Assembly (NCBI RefSeq): GCF_963525625.1
Contig: NZ_CAURLD010000010.1
Coordinates: forward strand, 27,696-91,695
Length of the DNA: 64,000 bases
Origin: an uncultured Streptococcus sp.
GTDB taxonomy: Bacteria; Bacillota; Bacilli; Lactobacillales; Streptococcaceae
Reading direction: 5' to 3'
Part shown: positions 6,284 through 64,000 of the stretch, piece after piece
How positions within the stretch are numbered: the first letter of the stretch is position 1
Layout of the letters: every line of letters starts with the position of its first letter
The notes under the pieces: model-generated
What the model was told of the DNA's origin: nothing
The model's database searches: none
Seen by the model: only the letters and a program-made list of their open reading frames with translations
Program-made: the position numbers and the translations under genes

Positions 6284-6391
6284 ACAAAATACCATGTCTT
6301 TCTATATATAGTTTACCATAAAACTAGAGCCTTTTCCGCAATTTTACTATTGAATCATCTCTACCTCAATGACACAAACCTCCTTATTGGG

Positions 6392-6430: not shown

Positions 6431-6447
6431 GATTTACAAAGAGTCAA

Positions 6448-7939: not shown

Positions 7940-9064
7940 TTATTTATTAATAATACCAAACTCTTCGTTTTTCTTCTGCTGCTGGGCTTCCTTGTGATTA
8001 TCATAGAGGTTAGCCAAGAACTTAGCGATTTCTTTGAGGATAGAATAGGTCGGGATTGCCACAATCATCCCCAGCACACCATAGATATTGCTGGATAAGA
8101 GCAAGAGCACCATGATGGTAATAGGATGGACCTTCATCACACCACCAACGATACGGGGATAGAGGATATTTCCATCAACCTGCTGGATAATCAGCATGTA
8201 AATCAAGGCCGCCACCATCTTCTGAGGATCCGTAAAGGCATACGTAATGACCATGGGAATCAAGCCGATACTCGGTCCCACATAGGGAATCAGATTAGCC
8301 AGACTAGAGAAAATAGCAAAGACCAAAGCGTACTTGAGTCCAATGACACTATAGCCAATATAGGCCAGAGCACCGATAATCAGGGCATCGATTGAAATTC
8401 CGCTGATATAGCGGGCAACAGTAGCATTGAGATTGGTCAGTAAACTAGAGATATTGAGCTTATCCCGCTTGAGGACTGTCCGCTCCAGCATGGGCAAAAG
8501 CTTATGGCCGTCCATGAGGAAGTAAACCAAGAAAATCGGCGTCATAATCAAAATCATCAGCGTATTGACAACTGCTGACAGAACACTTCCCAGACTATTG
8601 GTCACACTGTTAAGGATATTTTGCAGAATGTCCACATAAGACAGGTTGAGCTGCTGGATGGTGGATTGGATATTCAGATTTCGAAAGAGCGGATTTTTAG
8701 ATAATTGATTGACAAAACTTTGAATTTCCCAATAAAGGCCTTGCGTTGAATTAATCAGGCTGCTTAGCTGATTAATCAAAATCGGCAAGAGGTAAATAAC
8801 GCCCAAAGCAATCAAGCCAAACAGAAGGCTGAGCGTAATCAGAATCCCAATCATTCGGTTGATTTTGAGCTTCTCCTGGAGAAATTTCACCAGCGGATTG
8901 GTGATATAGTAAAGGAATCCTCCCACAAGAAAGGGAATCAAGATTGTATTCACAACGCTAACAATCGGGGTTATCATATCCCCCATCTGGCGCCAGATAA
9001 AGAAGATAATCGTTAGCAAAAGGACCTCGCTGGTCCAAAACATCAGCTTACTTTTATGAAACAT
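7940..9064 (-). CDS. AI-2E family transporter (PerM/UPF0118)
   Basis: 374 aa, polytopic, with family-typical length and C-terminal pattern (GLIPMVITYAF...ILYPRIVG). Confidence 0.8.
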   Translation of the reverse strand: MFHKSKLMFWTSEVLLLTIIFFIWRQMGDMITPIVSVVNTILIPFLVGGFLYYITNPLVKFLQEKLKINRMIGILITLSLLFGLIALGVIYLLPILINQLSSLINSTQGLYWEIQSFVNQLSKNPLFRNLNIQSTIQQLNLSYVDILQNILNSVTNSLGSVLSAVVNTLMILIMTPIFLVYFLMDGHKLLPMLERTVLKRDKLNISSLLTNLNATVARYISGISIDALIIGALAYIGYSVIGLKYALVFAIFSSLANLIPYVGPSIGLIPMVITYAFTDPQKMVAALIYMLIIQQVDGNILYPRIVGGVMKVHPITIMVLLLLSSNIYGVLGMIVAIPTYSILKEIAKFLANLYDNHKEAQQQKKNEEFGIINK

Positions 9065-9138
9065 TTGACTCCTCCTATCAGTTATTTTACCATAAATTTT
9101 GTTATAATAAAGGAGATTTAACGAAAGAAAGAGTAAAA

Positions 9139-9933
9139 ATGGAAAAGATTATCAAACTGGAAAATGTAAGCTTGGCTAAACAAGGCCGAACCATCTTAAA
9201 AGATCTCAACTGGCAGGTGAAAAAGGGGGAGCATTGGGCTATTCTCGGTCTCAACGGTTCTGGAAAGTCTACTCTCCTGCGCCTGCTCATGGCTGAACAT
9301 TGGAAGACCCAGGGCAAGGTAACAGTTCTCGGTACTGAATTTGGTGCCGGCGACATTCCCCAGCTGCGAACTAAGATTGGAGTAGTCGGCTCCTTCATTG
9401 CTGAACGACTACCCAGCCATCTCAGTGCCGAAGAAATCGTCCTGACAGGCAAGTATAAAAGCAGTATTCTCTATGCTCCTTATGGACAGGCAGAGCTGGA
9501 TCAAGCTAGGGAAATGCTGGCTTCCATTGGCGGACAAGATTTGATTGGCCGGAGCTACATCAGTCTATCTCAAGGGGAAAAGCAGCTCTTGCTGATTGCG
9601 CGCAGTCTTATGGAAAAGCCAGAATTGCTTATCTTAGACGAAGCGACCAGCGGTCTGGATCTCTTTGCCCGCGAGCGTCTGCTGGATCAGATTGGTAAGA
9701 TTACACAGATGAATCAGGCTCCAACCATCCTCTATGTCACCCACCATGTAGAGGAAATCACTGCTGCTATGGATCATGTCCTGCTCCTAAAAGAAGGTGA
9801 AATCATAGCCCAAGGTCCTAAAGAAAACATACTTCAAAAAGAGGTCATGGATCGCTTCTATCCTCAGCCAGTCGAGCTGATTGAGCTGGGAGAAGACCGC
9901 TATTTCGTCAAGGTGGAGGTCAGATCCTCATGA
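9139..9933 (+). CDS. Stand-alone ABC ATP-binding protein (ModF-like)
   Basis: Walker A GLNGSGKST, signature LSQGEKQ, Walker B LLILDEATSGLD. Confidence 0.85.
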   Translation: MEKIIKLENVSLAKQGRTILKDLNWQVKKGEHWAILGLNGSGKSTLLRLLMAEHWKTQGKVTVLGTEFGAGDIPQLRTKIGVVGSFIAERLPSHLSAEEIVLTGKYKSSILYAPYGQAELDQAREMLASIGGQDLIGRSYISLSQGEKQLLLIARSLMEKPELLILDEATSGLDLFARERLLDQIGKITQMNQAPTILYVTHHVEEITAAMDHVLLLKEGEIIAQGPKENILQKEVMDRFYPQPVELIELGEDRYFVKVEVRSS

Positions 9934-11492
9934 AGCAATTTTCTAATACCATCTTCAATTTGGGCTACTTCCTGATTCTGACCATGACTGCGATTGCCTT
10001 GCTCTTCCTGTCTGGACAGATTCTGCTATCCCATACTTACATCCCTTTGAGGATTGCTGAAGGAGTCCAATTCGTCAGTAATCCTTGGTATTTCTACCCT
10101 ATCCTCCTGCTCTTTCTCCTCAGCCTCTTTTTAATCCGGCCCCTATTGGAAAAGGTTCAGACCAAGCATCTTTTTTGGTTTCTGTCCTTCCTCTTTATAG
10201 CAGCAGCGATTTTTCTGATAACGGCCTACGATGGCCGCATCCGAGCTGACGCCAAGCATGTTTTCAATGCAGCGTTGGCCTTTAACCGAGGAGATTACAG
10301 CTCGCTGACAACCGTCGGAAGCTACATGTATCGTAATCCCCATCAGCTAGGACTGATGACTCTGGAGCGACTTTATGCTTTTATTTCTCCAACGACTCAG
10401 TTTGCCTTTAGCATGAATGTCGTCTGGACTTTACTCAGTCATTTCTTGATTTACAAGATTACTGCCCTGCTCAATGCCAGAGAAATGATTCAGAAATACA
10501 CGATTCTGCTGACTTTTCTCTTTCTACCACAGCTATTTTTCATCCTCTTTGTCTACGGCACCATTCCTGGACTCTTCTTCTGTCTGCTCAGTCTCTATGC
10601 TTTTATCAAGCTGGACCAAAAAGGAAACCTGCTCTATGCCTTGCTGGGAGCGGCCAGTATCAGTCTAGCCTGCCTCCTGCGCAACAACTACATTATCTTT
10701 GCCATTATGCTGATTGGCGTCTACTTCCTGTCCATTTTTTATAAATGGTCTTGGAAGAAACCCTTAACCATCATCCTGATTTTAGCCGGTATCGTCCTTT
10801 CAAACAAGGGTCTGACGGCCTACTATGAGCAGCTGATTGGGGGCAAGATTGGTGTCGGTACCCCAAAAATCGCCTACATCACTATGGGCCTGCGGGATGA
10901 TCCCAATCGGCAGACCTTAGGAGGCTGGTACGATGCCTACAATACCAAGATTCTCAAGCGCAACAAATATGATGAAAATTTGGCTACAGAAATGGCCACT
11001 CGGGATTTGAAGGACATTTTGATTCACTTCAGCAAACATCCTGCTTATGCGCTCAAATTCTTCTACGAAAAGGTCAAGTCTACCTGGACTGAGCCAACTT
11101 TTCAGTCTATTTGGACTGGGCCGCAGATTGAACGCCAGCAATACATGAAGCCAGCTGTCCTGCGCAGCATTTATGAGGAAAGAAAAGGTTATCAGATTGT
11201 TAATTTCCTGCTCTTGACCCTGCTAGCCAGCATCTATCTGCTCTCCTGTTTCTTTATCCTGCATAAATTTTTCGTCGCCGAGGAAAAGCTGACGCCTTTT
11301 GACCTCTATCCCTTCATCTTTCTCTTGGGGGGCGGCCTCTTCCACTTCTTCTGGGAAACCAAGAGCCAGTATGTCTATATCTATGTCCTCCTTCTCATCC
11401 CTTCCGCCGCTCAATCCTTAGTCGACCTGAGCGATTGGTGGAAGAACAAAGGAAAAGGGAAATCAACAGACCAGCTTGAGAAAAACCTATAA
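9930..11492 (+). CDS. Polytopic membrane protein (520 aa), possibly a GT-C-like glycosyltransferase
   Basis: About 12 hydrophobic segments. ATGA overlap with the upstream ABC ATPase gene. The function is a guess based on architecture only. Confidence 0.4.
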   Translation: MKQFSNTIFNLGYFLILTMTAIALLFLSGQILLSHTYIPLRIAEGVQFVSNPWYFYPILLLFLLSLFLIRPLLEKVQTKHLFWFLSFLFIAAAIFLITAYDGRIRADAKHVFNAALAFNRGDYSSLTTVGSYMYRNPHQLGLMTLERLYAFISPTTQFAFSMNVVWTLLSHFLIYKITALLNAREMIQKYTILLTFLFLPQLFFILFVYGTIPGLFFCLLSLYAFIKLDQKGNLLYALLGAASISLACLLRNNYIIFAIMLIGVYFLSIFYKWSWKKPLTIILILAGIVLSNKGLTAYYEQLIGGKIGVGTPKIAYITMGLRDDPNRQTLGGWYDAYNTKILKRNKYDENLATEMATRDLKDILIHFSKHPAYALKFFYEKVKSTWTEPTFQSIWTGPQIERQQYMKPAVLRSIYEERKGYQIVNFLLLTLLASIYLLSCFFILHKFFVAEEKLTPFDLYPFIFLLGGGLFHFFWETKSQYVYIYVLLLIPSAAQSLVDLSDWWKNKGKGKSTDQLEKNL

Positions 11493-11603
11493 AACTTGAA
11501 CACTTGATAAGAATTCCTTATAATTTTATAGGAACATTAAGTGAAACAAAGTTGAATTTGTAATGAAAATTTTTTGTACTTTACGAAGGGAGAATAGCGA
11601 TTT

Positions 11604-11978
11604 ATGTTTTCAATATTAGGTGCAGTATTATTTGGAGTTATAGCAATTATGACAGTTCTTGTTGCTTGCGGTCTGCCTTTGGGCGAATATACAATGGGTG
11701 GACAACATAAAATCTTACCTAAGAAATTTAGAATTGCGGCAGTCATTTCGGTGGCTATCCAAATATTTGCCATGATCATTATTTTGCAAGCCGGAGGTTT
11801 CATTCCCTTGTGGCTGTCTTTTAAGGTTACTAAATATATTTGTTTCTTCTTTGCCGCTTACCTATCCTTGAATACGATTATGAACATGATTTCAAAAAGT
11901 AAGAAAGAAAAATATGTTATGACTCCGATTTCACTTATAGCTGCAATATGTTTTTGGATAACAGCATTTCAGATGTAG
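11604..11978 (+). CDS. Small 4-TM membrane protein of unknown function
   Basis: 124 aa in an AT-rich patch, with an aaGGGAGaa RBS and a terminator downstream. Confidence 0.55.
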   Translation: MFSILGAVLFGVIAIMTVLVACGLPLGEYTMGGQHKILPKKFRIAAVISVAIQIFAMIIILQAGGFIPLWLSFKVTKYICFFFAAYLSLNTIMNMISKSKKEKYVMTPISLIAAICFWITAFQM

Positions 11979-12158: not shown

Positions 12159-12713
12159 TTAACTAAGCACTTCTCTCAATTTCTCAATCATGACCAAGAA
12201 AGGCGGGTTGTTAATCTGATTGATGGTCTTGTAGAGGGCGACGGTGAAGTCCTGCTGGGGCAACTGACTAACATAGTCAAGTACCGCATTTTTTTCAACC
12301 TCTCCACCATCATGCCCATAGTAAATCATGATAGCTGCACGGCCCCCTTTTTCCAAGCCTCGACAGACCTTTCCCAGAGCTTCCAGCGTTGTATCAGGTC
12401 GGGTAATGACTGACTTGTCCGCCGAAGGCAGATAGCCCAGATTAAAAATAGCAGCCTTGAAATAGTCTGTGTATTGGTCCAGAGTCTCATGCCCAGCCAT
12501 GATTAGCTGAGCATTGTCCAAGCCAGCTTCTGCCAAGCGCTTGCGGGTCTTTTCCACAGCCTGCTCCTGAATGTCAAAAGCATAGACCTGCTTGGCCAAT
12601 TGAGCCAGAAAGAGGGTGTCATGTCCATTGCCCATCGTAGCATCCACAACAGTATCTTCCTTGGTCACGACTTCAGCCAAAAAGTCATGGGCCATCTGTA
12701 AGGGTCTTAACAT
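12159..12713 (-). CDS. mnmM: SAM-dependent methyltransferase of the YtqB family (tRNA mnm5s2U methyltransferase MnmM)
   Basis: DATMGNGHDT, VYAFDIQE, FNLGYLP and NPPFLVMIEK closely match Bacillus subtilis YtqB as I recall it. It lies directly downstream of ytqA. Confidence 0.8.
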   Translation of the reverse strand: MLRPLQMAHDFLAEVVTKEDTVVDATMGNGHDTLFLAQLAKQVYAFDIQEQAVEKTRKRLAEAGLDNAQLIMAGHETLDQYTDYFKAAIFNLGYLPSADKSVITRPDTTLEALGKVCRGLEKGGRAAIMIYYGHDGGEVEKNAVLDYVSQLPQQDFTVALYKTINQINNPPFLVMIEKLREVLS

Positions 12714-13654
12714 ACGAATCTCTGCTCCTTTGCTTTACAGCCTTGCTTGCTGCCACGACGACGCATTTCTGCCTCGATGGCATTGAGAACTTCCCATTTA
12801 TTGAGGCTCCACATGGGACCAATCAACATGTCTCGCGGAGCATCGCCCGTGATACGGTGGATGACAATATGCTCGGGGATAATCTCAAGCTGGTCGCAGA
12901 CGATGGAGACATATTCCTCCTGACTGAGCAGCTGCAGCCGCCCCTCATGATAATCCCTCTGCATACGGGTATTAGTCATCAAGTGAAGCAGGTGGAGCTT
13001 GATTCCCTGAATGTCATTATCCGTCACGCAACGGCGGACATTCTCCAGCATCATCTCATGGGTTTCGCCCGGTAGGCCATTGATCAAGTGAGAGACAATC
13101 TCCGCCTTGGGGGCTTGCTTACGAACTCGCTGGACCGTCTCCACATAGAGCTCATAAGAATGGGCACGATTGATGAGGTCCGAAGTCTCCTCATAGGTAG
13201 TCTGAAGCCCCAGTTCCACAGTCACATGCATACGCTCGGATAAGTCAGCCAAGTAGGCTATGGTCTCATCAGGCAAACAATCCGGCCTAGTCCCGATATT
13301 GAGTCCAACGACACCCGGCTCGTTAATGGCTTGCTCATAGCGCTCACGGATTACTTCAAGCTTCTCATGAGTATTGGTGAAGTTCTGGAAATAGACCAGA
13401 TACTTGCGAACATCCGACCACTTGCGGTGCATAAAGTCAATTTCCTTATAGAACTGCTCGCGAATGGGCGCATCCGGCGCCACAATGGCATCACCAGAAC
13501 CCGAAACGGTACAAAACGTACATCCTCCATGCGCTACGGTTCCATCCCGATTGGGACAGTCAAAGCCCGCATCAATAGGCACCTTAAAAGTCTTTTCTCC
13601 AAAAAGTTTTCGATAATAATCATTCAAAGAATTGTAAGATTTCATACCTTTCAT
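12707..13654 (-). CDS. ytqA: TIGR01212-family radical SAM protein (YtqA-like)
   Basis: CPNRDG...GGCTFC cluster. I prefer the start at MKGMKSY (13654) or MKSY (13645). The 65-aa N-terminal extension in the ORF track overlaps the next gene and begins at TTG. Confidence 0.85.
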   Translation of the reverse strand: MKGMKSYNSLNDYYRKLFGEKTFKVPIDAGFDCPNRDGTVAHGGCTFCTVSGSGDAIVAPDAPIREQFYKEIDFMHRKWSDVRKYLVYFQNFTNTHEKLEVIRERYEQAINEPGVVGLNIGTRPDCLPDETIAYLADLSERMHVTVELGLQTTYEETSDLINRAHSYELYVETVQRVRKQAPKAEIVSHLINGLPGETHEMMLENVRRCVTDNDIQGIKLHLLHLMTNTRMQRDYHEGRLQLLSQEEYVSIVCDQLEIIPEHIVIHRITGDAPRDMLIGPMWSLNKWEVLNAIEAEMRRRGSKQGCKAKEQRFVC

Positions 13655-13713
13655 TCTACCACAAAAAGGGGCATAGAAACAAAAATTCCCTCTTTCATAA
13701 GGAAAGAAGGAAG

Positions 13714-14013
13714 TCATAGCTCCCACTGATAACGCTTGAGATCTACACAGCCATTGGCCTTCAAGTCCACTCCCTCCGCCCAGAGCAAGTGTCTCTGGTC
13801 CTCCCAGCCAGGTGCGAGGCGCCCTGCTGCATTGACTACCCGGTGGCAAGGATGTTTGCCACCATAAAGTTCCGACTGACTGAGAATCTTTCCCACCAAG
13901 CGAGCGTTTTTAGGCCGCCCAATCAAACGAGCAATCTGACCATAGGTCGCCACGCGCCCAGAGGGAATGCTATCTACTAATGCTAAAACAGCATCTATGA
14001 TTTCTTGATTCAA
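13714..14013 (-). CDS. MGMT-family protein: a short methylated-DNA-protein-cysteine methyltransferase DNA-binding domain protein
   Basis: 99 aa. It retains the PCHRVV active-site motif and the VATYGQIA helix-turn-helix. Confidence 0.8.
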   Translation of the reverse strand: MNQEIIDAVLALVDSIPSGRVATYGQIARLIGRPKNARLVGKILSQSELYGGKHPCHRVVNAAGRLAPGWEDQRHLLWAEGVDLKANGCVDLKRYQWEL

Positions 14014-14262
14014 AACGGAAATGGCCCTCCTTTTTACAAAGTAGATCAGAAAGGCCGGAACACTACCCTTCGTTTTAGAAGCTATATTATTAAACCTCTT
14101 TCATTGATGATGTACTCATATCATTTCCGAGCAACTTCCATTCCACTTATAGATATAAAGCTTTCTTGACCTCCAGTCCATGGCAAGATTGTTCCTACGA
14201 TGGTAGTAATCGAAACTTACTTCTACAGCTTTATTGATTAGCTAACTCTCTAAAAAAATTCC

Positions 14263-14362
14263 AATAATGAAGGTTTAAGAGGTTATAAGTTTTTATACAT
14301 TCCATTCTACCACAAAATCTGGCAGTGACTCGAAAAATCCCTTCTTCCATAAAGAAAAAGGG
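14263..14362 (-). pseudogene. Degenerate duplicate of the ytqA 5' end plus its upstream leader
   Basis: Aligns by eye at roughly 70-75% with 13615-13709. Shared core: cattctaccacaaaa...gaaaaat(t)ccct. The coding remnant reads IKTYNLLNLHY versus MKSYNSLNDYY. Confidence 0.65.
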
Positions 14363-14402
14363 ATAAAATTATACTCAAAAAAATATATAATGCAAAATAT
14401 AA

Positions 14403-17036
14403 TCAATCTACAGATTTTAATGCTTCTAACATGTTTACATTTTTTAAACGGAAATTTACCACAAAACCTAGAATAGATAAAATCAAGATTATGGTCGCTA
14501 CTGGTATCAAGTATACAGTTAACTCAACCACTTTGGGATATACAGTATCTTTGCTCATCATCGTAATAATCGCATTATGTAAGTAATAACCTCCTACTAT
14601 TCCCAATAAGATTCCTATGGCAGAAAGTATCATTGTCTCTCTATAGATATACATCGTTACTTCCTTATCAAAGAACCCGAGGACTTTTATAGTAGATAAT
14701 TCTCTAATTCGTTCAGCCACATTTATATTCGTTAAATTATATAATATTACAATGGCTAACAATACAGAAACAACTACCAAGACCGTCATTGAAGTCCCCA
14801 AAGAATTTACTGCTGTTCTAACAGTTTTAACTAAAGCAGAGTTTTGAGATAGCGCGGATATTCCTGATTTATCCAAGAAAATTTTAGAACTATTAGAAAT
14901 GTTTGAAGCAGACTTATTTTTTAAGTTAATCAAGTATGCATTGTTTTCTGCGATTTCACCAAAAGTTTTATGATAGTAATCATTACTCATAAAAATATAA
15001 TGCCCAACATTCATCTCAACAATATCAGCCACTTTTATTTTGTAATTTTTCCCATTATTATCTTTAAAATTAAAATATTCTCCTTTTTTTACATTATAAT
15101 AATCAGCCAGCTTTTGGGAAATCAAAGCTCCCTTATTAGAAAGTTTTAACTCTTTACCTGATTCAGTATCTCTTAATGTAATGAAAGAATCCAGTTTTCC
15201 ATCACTACTTATAACAGAGATTGACTTCTTATCAATCTGACCTGAAATTTTCTCGCTAATACTTTTATAATGTATTTCTTTAAATTCATTCACTCTCTCA
15301 GACTTCAAAAGATTATCAATTTCTTTTTGCTCATCTTGACTAATATTATTTTTTTTAACAGCTAATATATCAAAACGAGTTATTTCTTTGAATTGATTAT
15401 TTACTACCTTACCAATAGAAGACTGAATCCCTAATCCTGCAAAAAGTAAGGCAACAGAACCAGTAACACCCAGCACCGTCATCATCATTCTTTGCTTATA
15501 TCTAAAAATATTTCTAGCTGTTACCTTTTGAGTAAAATTCAAACCATTCCAAATAAAGCCAATCCTCTCCAAAAGAATCTTTGAACCACTCACTGGAGGC
15601 TTGGGCAACAATAATTGAGCAGTATTTTCATTCAACTCTTTTCTAGCTACCAGAAAAGTAGGCATAACAGCGCTTATTAGAGTAAAAATCAATGACAAGA
15701 GTGAAAAGGAGCAATAGAAATAAAGCTTTGGACCACCTATAATCATCGTATTTGAAACAGTTCGGGTCACGATGCTAGGTAAAACATACTGACCTAAAGC
15801 GATTCCTAATAGTGTTCCGGTAAAACCAGCTACTGTTCCATAACAAATAAACTTTTTCAAAACATCAAAATCTGAATAACCGAGTGCCTTCAATATCCCT
15901 GAATTGATCCGTTCTTCGTTGACGAAGCGAGTCATCGTAGTAAAAGTGACTAGTGCAGCAACAAGGTATAAAACTACAGGAAAAAGGTTACCTATATTAC
16001 CAATATTGTTTTTTATTGACTCATAAGTTCTATAGCCTTCTCCCCCTGGAAAAGTTGTACGCGTATATGTGTTATAACTAGGTGCCTCTAAAGAATCAAT
16101 TTTATTTTGACCATTCTTTATATCTTCTTCAGCTTTATTAATTTTATCCTGTGCCTCAGAAAATTCCTTATTAATCCCGTTTAACTGGGTTTCTGGCAAA
16201 TTCGCAACTGCTTCTCTTTTTTTAGCTAAATTCGATTTTGCTTCTTCAAGTTGAGCTTTTTTTGAATTTATTGACGATTGCTGTGTCTTTTTTATATCAA
16301 CCAATCTCTGCTCTCCATTATCAGAAAGCAAGTCATCTAGTTGTTCCTGTTTTTTCTGAATGATTTCTGAATATTTGTCTGAATAAGGATTTACTCTATC
16401 AGTTTCATCATACTTTAATCGTGCAATTGTATATACATCACTTGAAAATGAATCTGAACTGACAACTCCATAAGCCGATAAAGTCCCATCACCAGCTGTT
16501 GTGTTCCCTAAGTTAGTTGTTGACCAGATTTCTGCAGAATTAACAAAACCGACAATTTCATATTCATCCCCCTTTAAAATTGAATTTTTTTCCTCTTTAA
16601 ATTCAATTTTGTCTCCCACTTTATAACGATCTTTTAAATTCGATGATAAAGCAATTTCCTTACTATTTTGAGGGAATTTCCCAGAAACTAAGTCATATAA
16701 AGAGATATCCTTACTATCTGAAAAAACTCTCATTGACTTGTTACTATCTTTTATGGAAGTATCAACCATATACCCGTATTCAATAGTTACATCCTTTATA
16801 CTGTCCAATTCAGCTTTATCTTTCTTATCTAAACCAGCATTTGATATGACTGCTAAATCCATCGTTTTTTGTTTATCCAAATATGCTCTAGCCGTTCTTT
16901 CCATATCTGGCGGTGTAGCTTTTAAACCGGTTAATGCAAATGAACCAAGAAACATTAACAACATAATCGAAATGAATCGTCCCTTGGATAAGGCAAAAGA
17001 TTTCCTTATATCTTTCCAAAATGTCGTTTTTTTCAC
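14403..17036 (-). CDS. ABC transporter permease with two FtsX domains (MacB-type, 877 aa)
   Basis: TM1, a large extracytoplasmic domain with a coiled-coil insert (aa ~222-317), a 3-TM FtsX domain, then a second copy of the same pattern. The segment is AT-rich. Confidence 0.85.
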   Translation of the reverse strand: MKKTTFWKDIRKSFALSKGRFISIMLLMFLGSFALTGLKATPPDMERTARAYLDKQKTMDLAVISNAGLDKKDKAELDSIKDVTIEYGYMVDTSIKDSNKSMRVFSDSKDISLYDLVSGKFPQNSKEIALSSNLKDRYKVGDKIEFKEEKNSILKGDEYEIVGFVNSAEIWSTTNLGNTTAGDGTLSAYGVVSSDSFSSDVYTIARLKYDETDRVNPYSDKYSEIIQKKQEQLDDLLSDNGEQRLVDIKKTQQSSINSKKAQLEEAKSNLAKKREAVANLPETQLNGINKEFSEAQDKINKAEEDIKNGQNKIDSLEAPSYNTYTRTTFPGGEGYRTYESIKNNIGNIGNLFPVVLYLVAALVTFTTMTRFVNEERINSGILKALGYSDFDVLKKFICYGTVAGFTGTLLGIALGQYVLPSIVTRTVSNTMIIGGPKLYFYCSFSLLSLIFTLISAVMPTFLVARKELNENTAQLLLPKPPVSGSKILLERIGFIWNGLNFTQKVTARNIFRYKQRMMMTVLGVTGSVALLFAGLGIQSSIGKVVNNQFKEITRFDILAVKKNNISQDEQKEIDNLLKSERVNEFKEIHYKSISEKISGQIDKKSISVISSDGKLDSFITLRDTESGKELKLSNKGALISQKLADYYNVKKGEYFNFKDNNGKNYKIKVADIVEMNVGHYIFMSNDYYHKTFGEIAENNAYLINLKNKSASNISNSSKIFLDKSGISALSQNSALVKTVRTAVNSLGTSMTVLVVVSVLLAIVILYNLTNINVAERIRELSTIKVLGFFDKEVTMYIYRETMILSAIGILLGIVGGYYLHNAIITMMSKDTVYPKVVELTVYLIPVATIILILSILGFVVNFRLKNVNMLEALKSVD

Positions 17037-57146: not shown

Positions 57147-57836
57147 TTATTCTTGCATGGCATAACCAACACCGCGAACGGTTTTGATATAGCTTGGCTG
57201 CCCTTCCACATCAATTTTACTGCGCAGATAACGAATATAAACATCTACAACGTTGGTCTCCGTTGCACTCTCGTACTTCCAGACACGCTCCAGCAGCTGC
57301 TCACGGCTCATGACCTTATTGCTGCCCATCAGGGTCACCAGCAGATCGTATTCCCGCCGCGTCAGTGCAATAACTTCCTCGCCACGGTAAACCGTGTGAT
57401 TTTTAATATCTACTCGCAGATTGCGGTAAGAGGTCGGAATTTTCAAGAGGCTGCAGTGCTGGTCAATAAAGTCGCGCCCGCGGAAAATGATGGAGACACG
57501 CTCCACTAAGTCACTGATAATGAAAGGCTTGACCACATAGGAAACGGCAAAATGCTGGATTGCTTCCTGCTGCTCTGCAATCTCTTCGCGACTAGCCAGA
57601 ACGATAATGACGGACGCTGGCTTAATCAAGCTCAGCTGCTGAGCAAAATCGCTGGCAGTCATATCTTGAAGATCATAGTTGAGCAAGAGCAAGTCATAAT
57701 CCACATCTTTGGCCAAAGTCAGTCCCTCTTGGCCAGTCTCAGCTAAATCTACAAGAAAGCTTTCCTTTTGCAGTTCCAAGCTCACAAATCGGGCAAGATT
57801 TTTTTCATTTTCTACTAGTAAAATTCGCTTTGCCAT
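57147..57836 (-). CDS. ritR: Orphan OmpR-family response regulator with Asn at the phospho-acceptor position (RitR-like)
   Basis: LLLLNYDL stands where DxxMP is expected. It has a linker Cys (DQHCS) and lies downstream of gnd, as in Streptococcus pneumoniae. Confidence 0.75.
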   Translation of the reverse strand: MAKRILLVENEKNLARFVSLELQKESFLVDLAETGQEGLTLAKDVDYDLLLLNYDLQDMTASDFAQQLSLIKPASVIIVLASREEIAEQQEAIQHFAVSYVVKPFIISDLVERVSIIFRGRDFIDQHCSLLKIPTSYRNLRVDIKNHTVYRGEEVIALTRREYDLLVTLMGSNKVMSREQLLERVWKYESATETNVVDVYIRYLRSKIDVEGQPSYIKTVRGVGYAMQE

Positions 57837-59270: not shown

Positions 59271-59362
59271 TATGTTCTCCTATAGTTTGTTTGTCTTATT
59301 TTATCATTTTTAAGGCTTAAAAGAAAGTATTAAGTCGGAGAGGGATGAAAGAGGAGAGGTAT

Positions 59363-59395
59363 AGAAAAACCAAGCTCAGATGAAACTGAACTTGG
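59363..59395 (-). terminator. Strong minus-strand terminator upstream of the gnd promoter
   Basis: Minus-strand RNA: CCAAGUUCAG-UUUCAU-CUGAGCUUGG followed by UUUUUCU. The G-U pair forms only in this orientation. Confidence 0.75.
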
Positions 59396-59966
59396 TTGTG
59401 GGAGTTTATAATAAAGTAGAGACTTTCATAGTAGTCTCCAAATGCCTAGTTGGAAACGCCTTCTTGCTGAACATCGTGAATATCACGACCATCCAGATGA
59501 GTGTATAGGTGATTTAACTTATAAGACTGACGTGCATACTAATTGACTACTGGCATACACCACTCTGAACTCGTTGGTCTGTTCAAATTTCAACTTAATT
59601 CCCCCCAACAATTGAGAATAAAGCTGGAATTTTTTACTTTTCAGGTTGGTTCGAACTTACAGAATTTGTCATGTGGTAAGCTGCTTTCTAAAATGTTGGC
59701 ATAAAGATTAATATAAAAATGATATCTAAAAAATTTATTCTCTTGATGAAATAACTATACAGTGTTAGGAATAGAACATATGAGAAATTGAAATCTCAGT
59801 AGGAAATAAATAAATGTTAAAAGATAATTTAATTATAAAAAGCAAGAAATACTTGCTGGTAATATAAAACATATTAAATTTCTAATAGGAAAGAGTGATA
59901 TCTCAATCTATTAAACAAATATAGGATGTCTATATGTAAGGAACTATACTAGATAACATTTATTAT

Positions 59967-60953
59967 CTACAGTTTACTTTTCCAGAGCGCAAGATTATTA
60001 AAAATTATTTTTTGATAAATTGAATAAAATGCATCAGATAAAGTTTTACCGTCAACGTAGTTATGGATATGTGTTTCAACATCTAGAAGTTCTTGTTCAT
60101 TATTCGCGTTATGAAAAAACATATAAACAAAACCATACTCGACTATCCTGTTATCTTCTTGTAAATGTTTTGCATATCTATCAAGTTGTTCAATTCCTAG
60201 TAGACATTTATCTTGTAATTTATAGTAACTTTTTCCTTCATAAATAGACCTTAAAAATGAAAATTTCACTTCTATAATTGCTTGTTCTTGACCATCATTT
60301 AAATATATATCCACGGATTCCTCATCTCTTATAATCGATGTGCAGTATTCGATAGAAACTTCACCCTTCATTTTATTTCTTAAAAATTCTAATAAAATAT
60401 TACGTAATTCCTGCTCTTTTATCTCAGCTTTAATTTTACCTCGGGAATTGAAACATTTGTTATAATAGTACTCTTTATATTGACACTCTACATTAAAGGT
60501 TTCAAACACTTCTTTTAACTCTGAAATTGGCTTTAATAAATTTAATTGATCTTGCATTGTTTTAGTCTTTGCTAGGCATGCCTCTACCTCTGTGTTTATC
60601 ACACCATTTTGAGCAATTAGTTTTATCCCTTCATTAACAGCATAGACAATACAATTTTTTTTCCTAGAAATCTCTAAAACCATATTAATAAATTCAGGAT
60701 CAGAAATTTTACGTAAGGCTATTTCTTTAGAAGTAAATTCAGATTCATTTATATCGATACAATGTATCTTAGCAATAGGTAAGAACCGTATTTCTGCCAA
60801 TAACTCATCCAATTGTTCTGTAATACTTAGACTCGATTGTGTACAGATCACGACAACTTTACTATATTCTGCAAAGATATCTAATAATTTACTCTCACTA
60901 GTTACACTTTCAGTTTTTGAAGCTCTTTCTAAAAATTTCTCAGCATCAAGCAT
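59967..60953 (-). CDS. Candidate effector: unknown N-terminal domain plus a C-terminal PD-(D/E)xK-like nuclease motif
   Basis: 328 aa. E182...D215-x12-E228-V-K230 (VDIYLNDGQEQAIIEVKF). There is an 8-nt start/stop overlap with the upstream gene. Confidence 0.45.
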   Translation of the reverse strand: MLDAEKFLERASKTESVTSESKLLDIFAEYSKVVVICTQSSLSITEQLDELLAEIRFLPIAKIHCIDINESEFTSKEIALRKISDPEFINMVLEISRKKNCIVYAVNEGIKLIAQNGVINTEVEACLAKTKTMQDQLNLLKPISELKEVFETFNVECQYKEYYYNKCFNSRGKIKAEIKEQELRNILLEFLRNKMKGEVSIEYCTSIIRDEESVDIYLNDGQEQAIIEVKFSFLRSIYEGKSYYKLQDKCLLGIEQLDRYAKHLQEDNRIVEYGFVYMFFHNANNEQELLDVETHIHNYVDGKTLSDAFYSIYQKIIFNNLALWKSKL

Positions 60954-61545
60954 CTATCTCTTTTCCTTTCAGATATTCTTCGAAAATATAGTCTAACCAA
61001 GCAATAAATACATCATATTTGTCTAGATCAACATTAGAAGATTTTGCTTTATTCTGAAAGTTTTCCAATAATTTATAAAGTTGGTTGTTATTCAATAAAA
61101 TATTAGTTTTGTTCCTACTCAAGGCCTCTTCAATATTTGGTTCGTTGAAAAAAATAGATAAAACAATCTCATCGCTATATGATGAAATCATATTTACAAA
61201 ATAAGCAACTAATTTTAAATCATTCTTGAATTTTTCAGAATTTTTCAGATTTTTCCCACATTCTGCTATCAATTTATCACAAATATTGATTTTAAAACCA
61301 ATAAGAGAAATATAGTCTTGAGAGTTTAAAACTCCCAATGTATATTCCATTTGATATGAATTAACTATTCCAATTTTAGGCTCAATTATCAATTCATCTA
61401 GAATTTCATTTTCATCACTATTCAAGAAAGAATTCGAAACAATGAATATATAAATATAACGAAAAAGTGAACTTTTTGTTATATTTTTTTTATGTCTAAG
61501 CGAATATAAAAAAAGCGACATATAATAATACAATTTGTGATTCAT
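60946..61545 (-). CDS. Helical 199-aa protein, candidate middle component of an ABC-3C/Lamassu-like system
   Basis: No recognisable motif. It has an AAGGAG RBS inside the end of the ATPase gene, with a 1-nt gap. Confidence 0.4.
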   Translation of the reverse strand: MNHKLYYYMSLFLYSLRHKKNITKSSLFRYIYIFIVSNSFLNSDENEILDELIIEPKIGIVNSYQMEYTLGVLNSQDYISLIGFKINICDKLIAECGKNLKNSEKFKNDLKLVAYFVNMISSYSDEIVLSIFFNEPNIEEALSRNKTNILLNNNQLYKLLENFQNKAKSSNVDLDKYDVFIAWLDYIFEEYLKGKEIDA

Positions 61546-61546
61546 A

Positions 61547-63439
61547 CTATCTCCTTAACAATTTATAAATATCCAATTCTTCTATGTCTTTATATTGTTT
61601 ATTTGCATGTCTTGAAATTTCTAATAAATTAATAATTCTAATTGAACTATTTTTCTTTATAAGCGAAGTGACCAACGAACTATTGCGTGCATTGGCAGAA
61701 AGAAATAAAGTATTCCCTGATTGTAAATAACTATTAAAAGTGTCGACAGCATTCTCTTCAAATAAATAATCGAGAGTACTGTCCGGTGTTTCACTTATAA
61801 AAAAAGTATCTTTATGAAAAAACTCTAATGTAGAAAGCCTGAAAGCCATATCAATGAAAATTCTTTGTGACTCAGAAAGAGATTCCTCACTTTCACGTGC
61901 TGAATTGTTTAGGAAAAATTTAAAAAGTGTATTATCTCCACTACCAACTAATTCTAATCTAATATTTGAATCATTTCCTAAGAAAGAATAAGCATACTTG
62001 TAAAATATTTTACTAAAATTTATAAATACACTTTTTATACTTTGATCGATATCGTTAGCTAATTGATTTTCTTTTTTCTTAGTTTCTTCTAATTTATTTA
62101 AAAAAAGCTCTTTTTCTCGATTTAATTGGTTATATTTCTCAAGATTCTCATTAGACTCATTATTTATTTTGCTTTTTATTTTTAACTTTTCTTTAGTTGT
62201 TTCAAAAAGTTCACTCTCTCCATCTTTTATCATCCTATCAATATCTTCAATTTCTTGTGTCAATTCCTCATACCTTGAATCTAGTTTCCCTTTTTTAATT
62301 TGTAGATTCTTTTGCTTTATCTCTATTTCTGTTAAATTTGTATTGGTGTTGATATTTATCCTACTCTTACAAAAAAAACACTCTAAAATATCGATATGAA
62401 AATCAATATGTTCAGTTCCACAAAATGGACATACTCCTGAACTTAAAACTGGGGTAAATTTATCATAAAAGTCTTGATAGGTATTGGGAAAAATATTCTT
62501 ATACCACTTTTTTTCAAGATCTGCAAGTTCTGCTCTAACTCTATCGATTTCTATTCTATTCTGGAGTCTCTGTTGAGATCTTTTATTTAAGAGTTCTCTA
62601 TATTCATCGATTTTTGTATTGATTGTCTTAACTTTAAACTCCACATCTTCTAAATCTTTAAGAGAGTATACTTCATCGCCAGATTTATTTAAGTCTTCTC
62701 CTAAAAACTCTTTAACCATTGACATTTTATAGGATTTCAATCGCGCTTGGCTATCATATTTTTTTATTAATTTTTGAGTTTCACTATATTCAAAATACTT
62801 CTCTCTAGGCATAAATTTACTTAAAACCAATTTACTAAGATTTTCATCCCAGAAAACAAAATTTCTTGCTTCTGAGAAAAACATTATTTCGGTTAACATC
62901 AAAATAAATGAGTTTATATCTGGAAACCCTGAAGATTTAATTAACGCATTATGATACTTATTGATTAAAGATTCGCTTAGTTGTTCATCATTTATTGAAG
63001 AAAAGTATTTTTTTTCATATCTCTCATAATCCAGTTCTTTCTCTCTTTCATCCTCTTTTTTTCCATTAACACTAAAACTAATTAGCCTATGTGAATATAA
63101 ACTGTGCTTTGTTACAAATGTATCATTTGCAATAGAAAATTCAACTTCAACTTCTGCTACATTTAAAGGAAATTCCATTCGATTTTTAAAATAATCCCTA
63201 TCAAACATAGGGCGTCTGGATTTTTGCTGATCCTTATAATTCCTAACCTGTTCTCTTCCTTTATATGGCCCTATTATGGAATACCTTATTATGTTTAGTA
63301 ATGTTGTTTTTCCCAAACCATTAGTTCCAAATATAATATTTAATTTATCTGATAAGTCTATTTCAAGAGGACATTTATATAAATCAAAATTATCAATTTT
63401 TAGCCGTTTAATCTTTGGTAAGTAGTAGTTAAATTCCAT
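61547..63439 (-). CDS. Coiled-coil ABC/SMC-like ATPase with an embedded 4-Cys zinc ribbon
   Basis: Walker A GTNGLGKTT (aa 38-46), signature-like LSESQR (aa 521-526), Walker B/D-loop FFISETPDSTLD (aa 546-557), about 300 aa of heptad-rich insert, and CPFC-x13-CFFC (aa 337-357). Confidence 0.7.
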   Translation of the reverse strand: MEFNYYLPKIKRLKIDNFDLYKCPLEIDLSDKLNIIFGTNGLGKTTLLNIIRYSIIGPYKGREQVRNYKDQQKSRRPMFDRDYFKNRMEFPLNVAEVEVEFSIANDTFVTKHSLYSHRLISFSVNGKKEDEREKELDYERYEKKYFSSINDEQLSESLINKYHNALIKSSGFPDINSFILMLTEIMFFSEARNFVFWDENLSKLVLSKFMPREKYFEYSETQKLIKKYDSQARLKSYKMSMVKEFLGEDLNKSGDEVYSLKDLEDVEFKVKTINTKIDEYRELLNKRSQQRLQNRIEIDRVRAELADLEKKWYKNIFPNTYQDFYDKFTPVLSSGVCPFCGTEHIDFHIDILECFFCKSRININTNTNLTEIEIKQKNLQIKKGKLDSRYEELTQEIEDIDRMIKDGESELFETTKEKLKIKSKINNESNENLEKYNQLNREKELFLNKLEETKKKENQLANDIDQSIKSVFINFSKIFYKYAYSFLGNDSNIRLELVGSGDNTLFKFFLNNSARESEESLSESQRIFIDMAFRLSTLEFFHKDTFFISETPDSTLDYLFEENAVDTFNSYLQSGNTLFLSANARNSSLVTSLIKKNSSIRIINLLEISRHANKQYKDIEELDIYKLLRR

Positions 63440-63443
63440 CGTA

Positions 63444-64000
63444 TTATTTCTCCAATACTATTACACCTTCAAGTAATTTGCCAATCTTTTCCTTCTGCTG
63501 AGGACTTGGATTTAAGTAACGTGCTTTTCTTATTTCAACAACTTCAAATCCTATAATTTCAGCAATTTCAGAGCAAATCTCTAAAGTATTAATTAACACT
63601 CCAAAATAAGCAGAATTTGAAACATTAAAATAGATTCGCCGCCCTTTTTTTAGCTTTTGATACATTCCATTAAAAATGATCTCCATATCTTCAAAATAAG
63701 CAATAATCATATTTTGAATTTCTGTATTCCATACTACTGAATCTTTGCTTAGAGATTCCATTTCAGATATGGTAGCTTTAAGAATCTTACTTTGTATCCC
63801 CTTTAAATTTTGTATTTTTAACTGGACATGTGAGCGTATAGTCTGTTCTCGTAATTTTTTTATATCATTATAATTTGTTAAAAAATCTAGCGCTTTCAAT
63901 TCTAACATATAAGAATCTGTATAATCCCTTGAATTCAGATACGGAGGAGAGGTAATAATTAAATCTACAGAGTTATCATCCACATTCTCAAAAATTAGTT
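63444..64000 (-). CDS. N6/N4 DNA-methyltransferase-like ORF (5' end outside the window); no AdoMet-binding motif I is seen after the catalytic SPPY motif
   Basis: The frame is open to the window edge (...LIFENVDDNSVDLIITSPPY). The downstream blocks KKGRRIYFNVSNS / GFEVVEIRKARYLNP / EGVIVLEK resemble the middle of beta-class MTases, but the ORF stops before any HPTxKP/FxGxG region. Confidence 0.6.
   Translation of the reverse strand, partial: LIFENVDDNSVDLIITSPPYLNSRDYTDSYMLELKALDFLTNYNDIKKLREQTIRSHVQLKIQNLKGIQSKILKATISEMESLSKDSVVWNTEIQNMIIAYFEDMEIIFNGMYQKLKKGRRIYFNVSNSAYFGVLINTLEICSEIAEIIGFEVVEIRKARYLNPSPQQKEKIGKLLEGVIVLEK

Follow-up and report, generated by a model that had tools for sequence, protein, structure and literature searches.

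The last part of the window, the stretch of 64,000 nucleotides that was analysed, is occupied by four tightly packed genes on the minus strand, which encode, in this order, a DNA methyltransferase (MTase), an ABC ATPase, a small middle protein and a nuclease-type effector. The genes and the hairpins that follow them are:

63444..64000, minus strand: 3' part of the MTase gene, C-terminal 184 aa (PADLOC MTase_II, 1.9e-32; Pfam N6_N4_Mtase)
61547..63439, minus strand: Rad50/SMC-like ABC ATPase with a coiled-coil insert, 630 aa (PADLOC LmuB PDLC03859; Pfam AAA_23)
60946..61545, minus strand: middle component, 199 aa, with an N-terminal winged-helix-like domain and then a helical C-terminal half
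59967..60953, minus strand: effector, 328 aa, with an N-terminal alpha/beta domain and a C-terminal PD-(D/E)xK nuclease domain
59841..59857, minus strand: terminator-like hairpin with a T-run, about 110 nt past the effector stop (consensus scan only)
59368..59397, minus strand: stronger terminator-like hairpin with a 12-bp stem, in the spacer before gnd (consensus scan)

Re-checking the ORF list reproduced the coordinates, the strand and the spacings of +4, +1 and -8 nt given in the initial annotation. Shine-Dalgarno-like motifs, which had also been claimed, lie within each preceding gene: GGAG 10 nt 5' of the ATPase ATG, AAGGAG 5 nt 5' of that of the middle gene, and AAAGGA/GAGA ahead of that of the effector gene. 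An extended -10 box, TGGTATAAT, is located past the valS terminator, 57 nt 5' of the MTase ATG. The probability of a 630-codon open frame is about 1e-24 at ~27% GC, where ~8.5% of random codons are stops (our own arithmetic); this value and the conservation of all four proteins in other phyla place the genes beyond chance.

The host is an oral Streptococcus, and the cassette is inserted between valS and gnd. The GC content is 0.44-0.48 in gnd and drops near 59500 to 0.25-0.30, a level kept up to the window end, so that the cassette has 25-30% GC against 44-48% in the adjacent housekeeping genes. It climbs back toward the host level near the hairpin at 59368..59397, which may represent the island boundary. 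Retrieval of the sequence beyond the window, advised in the initial annotation, gave identical contigs which contain the 5' end of the MTase gene and, directly upstream of it, valS; there is therefore no fifth gene, and the island consists of exactly four genes with valS on one side and gnd on the other. Gene packing, GC fall and these contigs together bear out one operon-like cassette of foreign composition, and many independent metagenome contigs contain the four ORFs, intact and identical. In a strain with an identical Gnd protein the same slot holds instead a cassette of a C5-methylase and a PLD-SF2-helicase (helicase-nuclease).

Structural features of the four proteins

The motifs discussed below are located as follows:

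63939..63950, minus strand: SPPY catalytic motif (motif IV) of the MTase, from the translation; the best-conserved stretch of the MTase family
63302..63328, minus strand: ATPase Walker A, G38-T46, GTNGLGKTT, with lysine K44; invariant in alignment A3
62369..62431, minus strand: zinc-hook-like CPFCG-x13-CFFC (C337, C340, C354, C357) at the coiled-coil apex
61862..61879, minus strand: ABC signature equivalent LSESQR, L521-R526, aligning to LSGGER of Rad50
61769..61804, minus strand: Walker B and D-loop, FFIS-E550-T551-PDSTLD557; E550-D557 invariant in alignment A3
60264..60311, minus strand: nuclease catalytic motif D215...E228-V-K230, aligning to VDI...IIEVK of SduA

The full MTase, whose 5' end lies outside the window, comprises 426 aa (full length from L001:8716-9996; 412 aa in RefSeq). 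It contains FSGSG (FxGxG) at residues 58-62, a central region of ~190 aa and then the SPPY stretch, for which the mean column majority in the family was 0.98. By this layout it is a complete alpha-class DNA methyltransferase with a central target-recognition domain, and the motifs suggest m4C or m6A as its product. Aligned over 97% of its length, the MTase is 22% identical to a methyltransferase of the D. radiodurans plasmid pCP1, which may be M.DraR1 (DR_C0020), a Type II m4C enzyme with the site CCGCGG encoded on this small plasmid (PMC6712171). The MTase is the slowest-evolving component: its identity remains at 52-55% where the values are 34-53% for the ATPase, 27-44% for the middle protein and 26-41% for the effector. 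A methyltransferase is usually more conserved than its restriction partner.

The identification of the second gene product as an SMC/Rad50-like ABC ATPase was upheld. It matched PADLOC LmuB PDLC03859 nearly over its full length (3.8e-16, residues 9-543 on model positions 4-534 of 611), and LmuB models were the best defence-family match for 13/13 family members tested, the best value being 2.9e-20. The match is modest (57 bits), and the family profile ranked Rad50 and SMC heads first in the PDB, with no chain named LmuB or DdmC recovered at E<=1. PbeC and DndD models were matched as well, in the P-loop region only (residues 10-68), whereas LmuB models align over ~530 residues.

The four-cysteine motif noticed earlier in the coiled coil is invariant in alignment A3 (C337, C340, C354 and C357, together with P338 and G341), and CPxCG is the zinc-hook motif of LmuB (PMC10586767), the short LmuB proteins having 0-2 CxxC copies. 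Residues S522-R526 of the signature are likewise invariant in A3. Two details of the initial annotation required correction. The Walker A lysine is K44 (GTNGLGK44T), not K45, and the supposed replacement of Asp by Ser in Walker B arose from a wrong register: in FFIS-E550-T551 it is E550 that aligns to the Walker B Asp of Rad50 and T551 that aligns to the catalytic Glu. In the Burkholderia homologue the sequence is TLVIETPEASLD, and a hydrophobic residue occupies the 'S' position. The Walker B of the ATPase lacks the catalytic Glu and has Thr in its place; this and the CPxCG hook are both LmuB features.

As the initial annotation had it, the middle protein and the effector matched no named family in Pfam, NCBIfam, PADLOC, PHROGs or PDB. 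The family of the middle protein is small and closed (48 representatives among 1.84 billion proteins), and 0/28 of its members gave a Pfam or PDB match. Its AF2 model (pLDDT 81, pTM 0.82) gave in Foldseek weak MarR/PadR-type winged-helix matches only, and the protein is predicted to be winged-helix-like. In the effector the alpha/beta domain spans residues ~30-170 and the nuclease domain ~180-328 (AF2 model, pLDDT 87.6). Foldseek matches to Can2 (1.8e-3), SfsA, Hjc and EndoMS, a match of the family profile to the nuclease core of Shedu SduA (8ps4, E 1.1e-3), and weak Pfam matches of some members to HSDR_N, SduA_C or SfsA identify the nuclease domain as a Shedu/HsdR-N-like PD-(D/E)xK domain, in agreement with the first assignment. 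D215, E228 and K230, along with E180, E202, E212 and Q256, are invariant across 58 effector sequences. The effector is the only nuclease-type gene of the operon, and no sequence-reading domain was identified in it.

Distribution of the quartet

The quartet also occurs outside the source strain, where its absence had been named as a ground for rejecting the proposal: loci were found in Bacillota, Bacteroidota, Alpha- and Betaproteobacteria, in four gene arrangements. A same-subfamily MTase adjoins the ATPase trio in every one of ~21 independent loci, counting only those with sufficient flanking sequence, and the MTase is strictly co-inherited with the trio. The co-directional order MTase-ATPase-middle-effector was found in Streptococcus, Lachnospiraceae, Veillonellaceae, Bulleidia, Anaerosporobacter, a Bacteroidales MAG and others. 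In L036 and L038 the trio is followed by a convergent MTase, with HMM scores of 1e-61 to 1e-75 for the MTase and an ATPase only 21-23% identical. The arrangement in Azospirillum is convergent with one KAP NTPase gene between MTase and trio, and in Burkholderia one MTase lies between two paralogous trios. Homology of the middle protein and effector of the remote (proteobacterial, soil) quartets to those of Streptococcus was not detected, and conservation throughout the family was demonstrable for the MTase-ATPase pair only. What the earlier description called a 'methylase-like ORF' is no add-on but the best-conserved and, it appears, obligatory partner.

The quartet is patchily distributed and is carried as cargo on integrase/relaxase (integrative mobilisable) elements. 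AbiU2 and HpaII/Vsr genes are among its neighbours, and in several loci XRE-type HTH genes, resembling R-M controllers, are found beside it.

A probable restriction-modification-like defence and its alternatives

The reading preferred here, to which a probability of roughly 0.55 is given, is that of a horizontally acquired, four-component, ATP-dependent restriction-modification (R-M)-like defence cassette with a Lamassu-like complex. It is based on the MTase present at every sufficiently flanked trio, its complete motifs and its relation to the pCP1 enzyme, its slow evolution in the manner of R-M systems, the sole nuclease-type gene with invariant catalytic residues, the LmuB-like ATPase with its hook and altered Walker B, and the promoter-like -10 box and terminator-like hairpin which flank the cassette. 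The defence role is further indicated by the foreign GC content, the mobile-element cargo, the AbiU2, HpaII/Vsr and XRE neighbours, and the exchange of the slot with a C5-methylase cassette. Counted against it are the resemblance of the nuclease to non-specific nucleases (Shedu, the HsdR N-terminal domain, Hjc), in which no sequence-reading domain was identified, the modest LmuB match with Rad50/SMC ranked first in the PDB, and the undetected homology of the middle protein and effector from the remote quartets to those of Streptococcus; moreover, canonical Lamassu acts through abortive infection and is not known to include a modification enzyme.

We infer that the trio forms a complex, that it responds to a DNA trigger and that cleavage is sensitive to methylation. 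The stand-alone MTase would mark the host genome, and an ATPase dimer would be held at the coiled-coil apex by the Cys4 zinc hook, with the small winged-helix protein bridging or binding DNA and the nuclease docking via its N-terminal domain. Because Thr replaces the catalytic Glu, the ATPase should bind ATP, hydrolyse it slowly and act as a switch. Its sensing of incoming or replicating DNA (DNA ends or unmodified sites) would release or activate the nuclease, which methylation would keep off the chromosome; the outcome would be targeted restriction, not host suicide.

It seems unlikely that the cassette is instead a Lamassu variant acting by abortive infection, in which the trio senses phage replication intermediates or DNA ends, the released nuclease destroys all DNA and the cell dies. 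The MTase would then not protect the host and would be a guarded protein, an addiction partner, or an orphan blunting the restriction of other cells after transfer. ABC ATPases guarding R-M enzymes are known (PrrC, which guards a Type I enzyme, and RloC), and the closeness to LmuB in hook and hydrolysis-impaired Walker B and the non-specific type of the nuclease core would suit such a mechanism. However, none of the ~21 loci, in any arrangement, has a trio without the MTase, which is the most constrained component, and beyond the putative effector the cassette offers no cognate restriction enzyme for a guard to monitor.

A Dnd/CxC-type mechanism, in which the ATPase and the small DNA-binding protein scan DNA and load or direct the MTase while the PD-(D/E)xK protein alone restricts, is rather improbable. 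Aravind and colleagues proposed the same logic for ABC ATPases of the DndD/CxC type that are paired with DndE, and in some of these systems the coupling is to cytosine methylases in place of phosphorothioation (PMC10853773); a conserved MTase-ATPase core with fast-diverging middle and effector proteins would agree with it. The N-terminal PbeC and DndD matches that speak for it, however, are confined to the P-loop; in addition, a winged-helix fold is predicted for the middle protein whereas DndE is a double RHH, an HKD-SF2 helicase gene is absent, and an alpha-class MTase, which brings a target-recognition domain with it, does not normally require a loader. A non-defence role, as a mobile DNA-repair or epigenetic-regulation module (a Rad50/SbcC-like ATPase, a nuclease and a regulatory MTase) or as a decaying remnant, is hardly credible: the Rad50 heads ranked first in the PDB, and for Lamassu itself an origin from SbcCD/Rad50-Mre11 has been suggested, but an Mre11/SbcD-type phosphoesterase is absent, the GC content is foreign, the spread is patchy and involves integrative mobilisable elements and swap sites where R-M-type cassettes also occur, and the ORFs are intact and identical in independent contigs.

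Comparison with known systems

The assignment to the Lamassu family made in the initial annotation holds only for the ATPase. In common with Lamassu/ABC-3C/DdmABC (short-LmuB subfamily) the cassette has a Rad50/SMC-like ATPase of ~630 aa whose coiled coil is short, whose CPxCG zinc hook has two CxxC copies like that of some short LmuB proteins, and whose Walker B lacks the catalytic Glu. It likewise joins the ATPase to a small middle protein and to a nuclease effector that includes an additional non-catalytic domain, and its middle and effector proteins evolve fast. Every test of homology of the middle protein to LmuC and of the effector to LmuA failed, Foldseek recovering no LmuC and LmuA only at rank 34 (E 0.33). 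No match was obtained between the middle protein and the Pfam ABC-3C MC families or between the effector and the CTD families, the gene order is B-C-A against A-C-B (the reversal of LmuA-LmuC-LmuB pointed out earlier), the nuclease domain is C-terminal rather than N-terminal, Walker B reads hhhhE-T against hhhhD-[Q/S/T/E], and the obligatory MTase is foreign to Lamassu.

The CxC-clade, PbeABCD and Dnd-like systems (PMC10853773) resemble the cassette in combining a coiled-coil ABC ATPase that has an apical Cys motif with a nuclease and a small protein that binds DNA. Some of their loci contain DNA methylases in place of phosphorothioation, and the idea of an SMC-like scanner coupled to a modification enzyme is common to both. 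In contrast, the present ATPase resembles PbeC/DndD in the P-loop region only, the partner is winged-helix-like and not a double RHH, the nuclease is a stand-alone PD-(D/E)xK protein and not an HKD-SF2 helicase, the small disordered protein is absent, and the MTase is alpha-class with SPPY. Type I/III R-M systems likewise combine an MTase, more conserved than the restriction parts, with an NTP-dependent multi-subunit nuclease containing a PD-(D/E)xK domain, to which the weak HSDR_N matches correspond; their motor, however, is an SF2 helicase and not a Rad50/SMC-type ABC ATPase, and here an HsdS subunit is absent and the MTase is Type II-like and stand-alone. The core VDI...IIEVK...G-x-Q-x-x-KY of Shedu SduA aligns to the effector (PDB 8ps4, E 1.1e-3), but Shedu is a single-gene system without ATPase or MTase, and its N-terminal sensing domains are unrelated to the cassette. 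MADS also unites an MTase and an ATPase within one defence operon, and the ATPase partially matches mad3 (8e-11) and the MTase weakly matches mad2 (1.7e-3), yet the former match is limited to the N-terminal head, and MADS has eight genes against four here, the other mad genes being absent.

No description of the cassette was found in the literature searched; the arrangement may already be listed by Krishnan et al. 2020. The MTase with the ATPase trio fits no named system and, since the MTase-ATPase pairing also recurs across phyla, probably represents an undescribed R-M-like defence.

Organisation of the island and of the valS–gnd slot

The island consists of four minus-strand genes, which were called as open reading frames in the window as follows:
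63444 to the window edge, minus strand, 3' part of the methyltransferase gene
61547–63439, minus strand, ATPase, 630 aa
60946–61545, minus strand, middle protein, 199 aa
59967–60953, minus strand, effector, 328 aa

The genes are separated by +4, +1 and -8 nt, Shine-Dalgarno-like motifs are located within the preceding genes, and the GC content of the four genes is 0.25–0.30, compared to 0.44–0.48 for gnd and beyond. The packed, AT-rich minus-strand set described in the initial annotation was thus borne out. The sequence past the window edge, which that annotation had called for, was obtained from contigs carrying an identical ATPase; valS is the gene directly upstream of the complete, 426-aa methyltransferase, so the island is limited to exactly four genes (~4.8 kb) in the valS–gnd interval. 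The start of the methyltransferase is annotated differently between sources, giving 412, 426, 433 or 440 aa (positions 8716 versus 8758 of locus L001, and 4691 of locus L006). An exact extended -10 box (TGGTATAAT) was found 3' of the valS terminator hairpin, 57 nt ahead of the methyltransferase ATG, and a terminator-like hairpin is located after the effector gene; a promoter scan within the island gave matches no better than chance in AT-rich DNA. The NCBI product names of the four proteins are generic. The four-gene cassette is real and conserved, and has no name.

A different cassette occupies the same slot upstream of gnd in a contig encoding an identical Gnd protein (L044, positions 1230–6833). 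Three proteins are encoded there: a C5 DNA methylase of 553 aa, a 416-aa hypothetical protein, and an 887-aa protein that combines PLDc_2 with DEAD/ResIII/SNF2 helicase domains. The presence of this alternative beside the same Gnd indicates that restriction-type cassettes which are linked to a methylase and depend on ATP are exchanged at the valS–gnd slot.

Other features of the slot were observed. In locus L005 (11806–19333) the DNA 3' of the effector holds, in place of gnd, a series of small genes of phage or plasmid type (DUF2786, PriCT_1 primase-related), which points to a further rearrangement at the site. The 696 bp spacer between the island and gnd (59271–59966) contains a short ORF on the plus strand (59441–59545, MPSWKRLLAEHREYHDHPDE...) and two further terminator-like hairpins, and may represent a gene remnant from an earlier cassette exchange. 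Directly after gnd, a response regulator (57147–57836, minus strand) reads DLLLLNYDL, with Asn at the expected phospho-acceptor Asp, and no histidine kinase gene adjoins it; it resembles the RitR-type orphan regulator, which is known beside gnd in streptococci.

Sequence and predicted structure of the four proteins

The methyltransferase matched PADLOC MTase_II (1.9e-32) and Pfam N6_N4_Mtase. Along the full-length sequence, FSGSG (residues 58–62) is followed by a central region of ~190 aa and then by SPPY, so that the AdoMet motif precedes the target-recognition domain and the catalytic motif comes last, as in alpha-class enzymes. Aligned over 97% of its length, the protein shares 22% identity with a methyltransferase encoded by the Deinococcus radiodurans plasmid pCP1. 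This small plasmid encodes M.DraR1 (DR_C0020), an experimentally characterised alpha-class m4C enzyme which recognises CCGCGG (PMC6712171, PMC10855626), and the pCP1 match is not equated with M.DraR1. The base modified by the cassette enzyme would be converted to m4C or m6A.

The ATPase contains the Walker A motif GTNGLGK44T, a signature-like LSESQR and a D-loop STLD. Its long coiled-coil insert carries, at the apex, CPFCG-x13-CFFC with all four Cys invariant, in agreement with the four-Cys motif noted earlier. The PADLOC models of LmuB, the Lamassu ATPase, were the best match for 13 of the 13 family members tested, with ~530 residues aligned, at modest scores (57 bits; best E 2.9e-20 within the family). 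The family profile found Rad50 and SMC heads in the PDB, and no chain named LmuB. In the alignment to these heads, the Walker B Asp corresponds to E550 and the catalytic Glu to T551, and the corresponding region of a Burkholderia homologue reads TLVIETPEASLD. The "S instead of D" reported for Walker B in the initial annotation is therefore a register error, and the motif reads hhhhE-T, with no Glu at the catalytic position. Many LmuB proteins have the CPxCG hook. Those of the short type are ~600–650 aa long and combine this hook with 0–2 copies of CxxC and with a variant Walker B, hhhhD[Q/S/T/E]; compared to LmuB, the acidic residue preceding the Thr is Glu rather than Asp. A switch operated by ATP binding, with slow hydrolysis, has been proposed for LmuB, and by analogy the Thr at the catalytic position suggests the same behaviour here. 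The models of PbeC, DndD, GajA, PtuA, AriA and mad3 matched the ATPase solely in its N-terminal P-loop region (PbeC and DndD only at residues 10–68), and an identity with MADS, Pbe/Dnd, PARIS, Gabija or Septu was rejected on this ground.

Searches with the middle protein gave nothing significant in PADLOC, Pfam, NCBIfam or PHROGs and no PDB sequence match, and none of 28 family members matched the Pfam ABC-3C middle-component families. An exhaustive profile search with its alignment among 1.84 billion representatives recovered 48 proteins, which form a closed family with no bridge to LmuC, the Lamassu middle protein. The AF2 model (pLDDT 81, pTM 0.82) showed a winged-helix-like N-terminal unit followed by helices; Foldseek against the PDB returned only weak MarR/PadR-type winged-helix matches (E>0.3) and no LmuC chain. 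The protein occupies the position of an LmuC analogue and matched none of the types MC1–MC8.

The homologues of the effector fall into 118 clusters, none of which has a name, and neither the family scans (PADLOC, Pfam, NCBIfam, PHROGs) nor single-sequence PDB searches gave a significant match. The residues E180, E202, E212, D215, E228, K230 and Q256 are invariant in the C-terminal half. With the AF2 model (pLDDT 87.6), Foldseek retrieved the PD-(D/E)xK proteins Can2, SfsA, Hjc and EndoMS, confirming a nuclease fold at the level of the predicted structure. In the family profile, VDI...IIEVK...GxQxxKY aligned with the core of the nuclease domain in SduA of Shedu (8ps4, E 1.1e-3), and some members gave weak HSDR_N, SduA_C or SfsA matches. 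The N-terminal alpha/beta domain (~residues 30–170) is the more variable part; the resemblance of the whole chain to the CARF-nuclease Can2 is weak (TM 0.26), and a CARF- or SAVED-like assignment of this domain is not relied on. Among 58 effector members, none matched an LmuA-type CTD in Pfam or LmuA in PADLOC, and LmuA 9nxx appeared only at Foldseek rank 34 (E 0.33). The nuclease domain is C-terminal, and the LmuA plan of an N-terminal effector domain with a C-terminal docking or oligomerisation domain (CTD1–12) was not found. No relatives of the effector were found in phage, plasmid and IMG/VR collections, so it is not a gene of phages and not one typical of plasmids.

Conservation of the cassette across genomes

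Related loci were compared by tblastn with the four cassette proteins. Recurrence of the genes together outside this strain, on which the initial annotation had staked its proposal, was confirmed: the same genes, order and tight packing were present in every related locus with enough flanking sequence. The quartet, in the order methyltransferase, ATPase, middle protein and effector, was found in Streptococcus oralis, a Bacillota MAG, Veillonellaceae DNF00626, four Lachnospiraceae and Bulleidia, and also in Anaerosporobacter mobilis, a Clostridia MAG, a Bacteroidales MAG and a record labelled Erwinia with Gram-positive neighbours. Human oral streptococci commonly carry the quartet; it is also common on mobile elements of gut Firmicutes, where it is cargo of integrase/relaxase elements. 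The identity of the methyltransferase is 52–55% where that of the ATPase is 34–53%, of the middle protein 27–44% and of the effector 26–41%.

The most distant detectable ATPases (21–23% identity, E ~1e-33 to 1e-35) occur within trios of ATPase, ~210-aa and ~360-aa proteins. In the two loci with the remotest ATPases (L036 and L038) the methyltransferase is convergent and immediately downstream of the trio, and belongs to the same subfamily (HMM E 1e-61 to 1e-75, compared to only 5e-33 for the pCP1 methyltransferase). Azospirillum brasilense (NZ_CP059450.1) showed a convergent arrangement with a KAP-family P-loop NTPase gene between methyltransferase and trio. In Burkholderia stagnalis (NZ_CP156686.1, 2694000–2712000) one methyltransferase lies between two diverged paralogous trios, with the following locus-internal positions:
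1793–5691, minus strand, first trio
6089–7423, minus strand, methyltransferase
8102–11916, plus strand, second trio

The two Burkholderia ATPases are 28% identical to each other and both have the CxxC pair. The Azospirillum and Burkholderia ATPases share this pair and the motif hhhhETPxxSLD, and one effector matched PDDEXK_9.

Overall, the methyltransferase is kept beside the trio in about 21 of 21 assessable loci, in four gene arrangements; loci L021 and L037, cut off by contig edges, stand outside this count. When the middle and effector proteins of the Firmicute quartets were compared by HMM and hhalign with those of the proteobacterial and soil quartets, no significant match was obtained; the catalytic motifs line up by eye. 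Since remote homology of these two proteins could not be demonstrated, the demonstrably conserved core of the family, as judged from sequence comparison, is the methyltransferase–ATPase pair.

Several particulars of single loci were recorded. In Azospirillum (locus L035; the features noted there lie at 12518–14718, minus strand, and 9197–10771, plus strand) the ATPase homologue is divided into two ORFs of 527 and 196 aa, possibly by a frameshift, in addition to the KAP-family gene mentioned above. Genes for an HpaII-type restriction enzyme and Vsr are present directly upstream of the quartet methyltransferase in three loci (L011, positions 2755–5503, L012 and L013), with no intervening C5 methylase gene, and with a HEPN AbiU2 gene and transposases further upstream. 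Small XRE-type HTH genes (HTH_26, HTH_3) adjoin the methyltransferase in L033 (4520–4948), L034 (96–524) and L036 (5847–6083 and 12048–12392), and resemble R-M controller (C) proteins. The record labelled Erwinia sp. CPCC 100877 (GCA_009707675.1, WLYM01000031.1) contains a SpaA pilin with Gram_pos_anchor and an Rgg_C regulator as neighbours, and given these Gram-positive-type genes the organism label of the assembly or contig looks wrong.

Proposed function and comparison with known systems

The best-supported reading, with a probability of about 0.55, is that the cassette is an ATP-dependent restriction–modification (R-M)-like system. Its observed elements are the identities of the domains, their motifs, the operon structure and a strictly co-inherited methyltransferase; complex formation, the trigger and the methylation sensitivity of cleavage are what we infer. 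The methyltransferase would mark self DNA, and methylation would spare the chromosome. The ATPase dimer, closed by the Cys4 hook, would form with the winged-helix middle protein and the nuclease a Lamassu-like complex, which may sense foreign DNA and then release or activate the PD-(D/E)xK nuclease.

It is tempting to go further, although we give this somewhat less than even odds, and to consider the cassette an unrecognised class of ATP-dependent R-M systems. A zinc-hook Rad50/SMC ABC ATPase, derived from or sister to LmuB, would replace the helicase motor of Type I/III systems, and a Type II-like methyltransferase would turn suicidal nuclease release into self-sparing, methylation-gated restriction, the methyltransferase–ATPase pair being an ancient co-evolving core from Firmicutes to Proteobacteria. 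Lamassu and other SMC-based immune systems are not known to have a self/non-self mark, and the mode of action ascribed to them is killing of the infected cell. If the proposal is true, a Lamassu-like sensor always co-inherited with a DNA methyltransferase would indicate that such machinery can be combined with epigenetic self-marking, and an ABC/SMC-motor branch would be added to the R-M repertoire. The system is experimentally tractable, with four genes and clear residues for mutation: SPPY of the methyltransferase, K44 and E550/T551 of the ATPase, the four hook Cys, and D215/E228/K230 of the nuclease. The middle protein and the effector N-terminal domain are unannotated folds or families, whose adaptor, DNA-reader or docking roles could clarify how effectors are restrained by SMC-like sensors. 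Being common in oral streptococci and gut Firmicute mobile elements, the cassette is relevant to gene flow, phage therapy and genetic tractability.

The membership in Lamassu (ABC-3C) put forward in the initial annotation stood for the ATPase, which is SMC/Rad50-like, has ~600–650 aa with a coiled-coil insert and a CPxCG hook, and fits LmuB. It did not extend to the middle and effector proteins, which failed every LmuC and LmuA test, so that the likeness lies in the ATPase and the three-part logic. The Lamassu operon is LmuA-LmuC-LmuB; the cassette, as that annotation had stated, has the opposite order, ATPase, middle protein and effector after the methyltransferase, and the domain order of the effector is also reversed, the effector domain of LmuA being N-terminal and the cassette nuclease C-terminal. 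An abortive-infection variant of Lamassu with a guarded or addictive methyltransferase would agree with the LmuB match; Lamassu as described has no modification enzyme, in contrast to the methyltransferase in every cassette locus examined, and we judge this variant unlikely.

In Dnd/CxC-type systems the ATPase and a small protein have been proposed to serve the modification side (PMC10853773). An equivalent role here appears rather improbable: the likeness to CxC/Pbe systems with methylases is one of concept, not of components. They combine a DndD/CxC-clade ATPase with DndE, which has two RHH domains, whereas the cassette middle protein is predicted to be winged-helix plus helical, and they usually have an HKD-SF2 nuclease-helicase, whereas the cassette contains no HKD or helicase gene. 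MADS is an eight-gene set (mad1–mad8), compared to four genes in the island, and gave only partial mad3 and weak mad2 matches; the NCBIfam MAD3 model scored 14 bits against a cut-off of 420. A non-defence role is highly improbable, and the location at an exchange site supports a defence or R-M role of the quartet.

No description of a methylase-linked Lamassu or SMC system was found in the literature covered, the supplement of Krishnan et al. 2020, where a prior listing is possible, being outside its scope; SMC, Rad50 and Lamassu are absent from a 2025 review of R-M biology. The resemblance to Type I/III R-M systems is functional. The cassette contains a DNA methyltransferase with AdoMet-binding and catalytic motifs and, beside it, a predicted PD-(D/E)xK endonuclease with an invariant D...ExK. 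The motor of Type I/III systems is an SF2 helicase-type subunit (HsdR or Res); that of the cassette is an ABC ATPase, and Pfam detected no helicase domain in the four proteins. The best classification of the cassette is a Lamassu-like SMC module with a hard-wired R-M-type methyltransferase.
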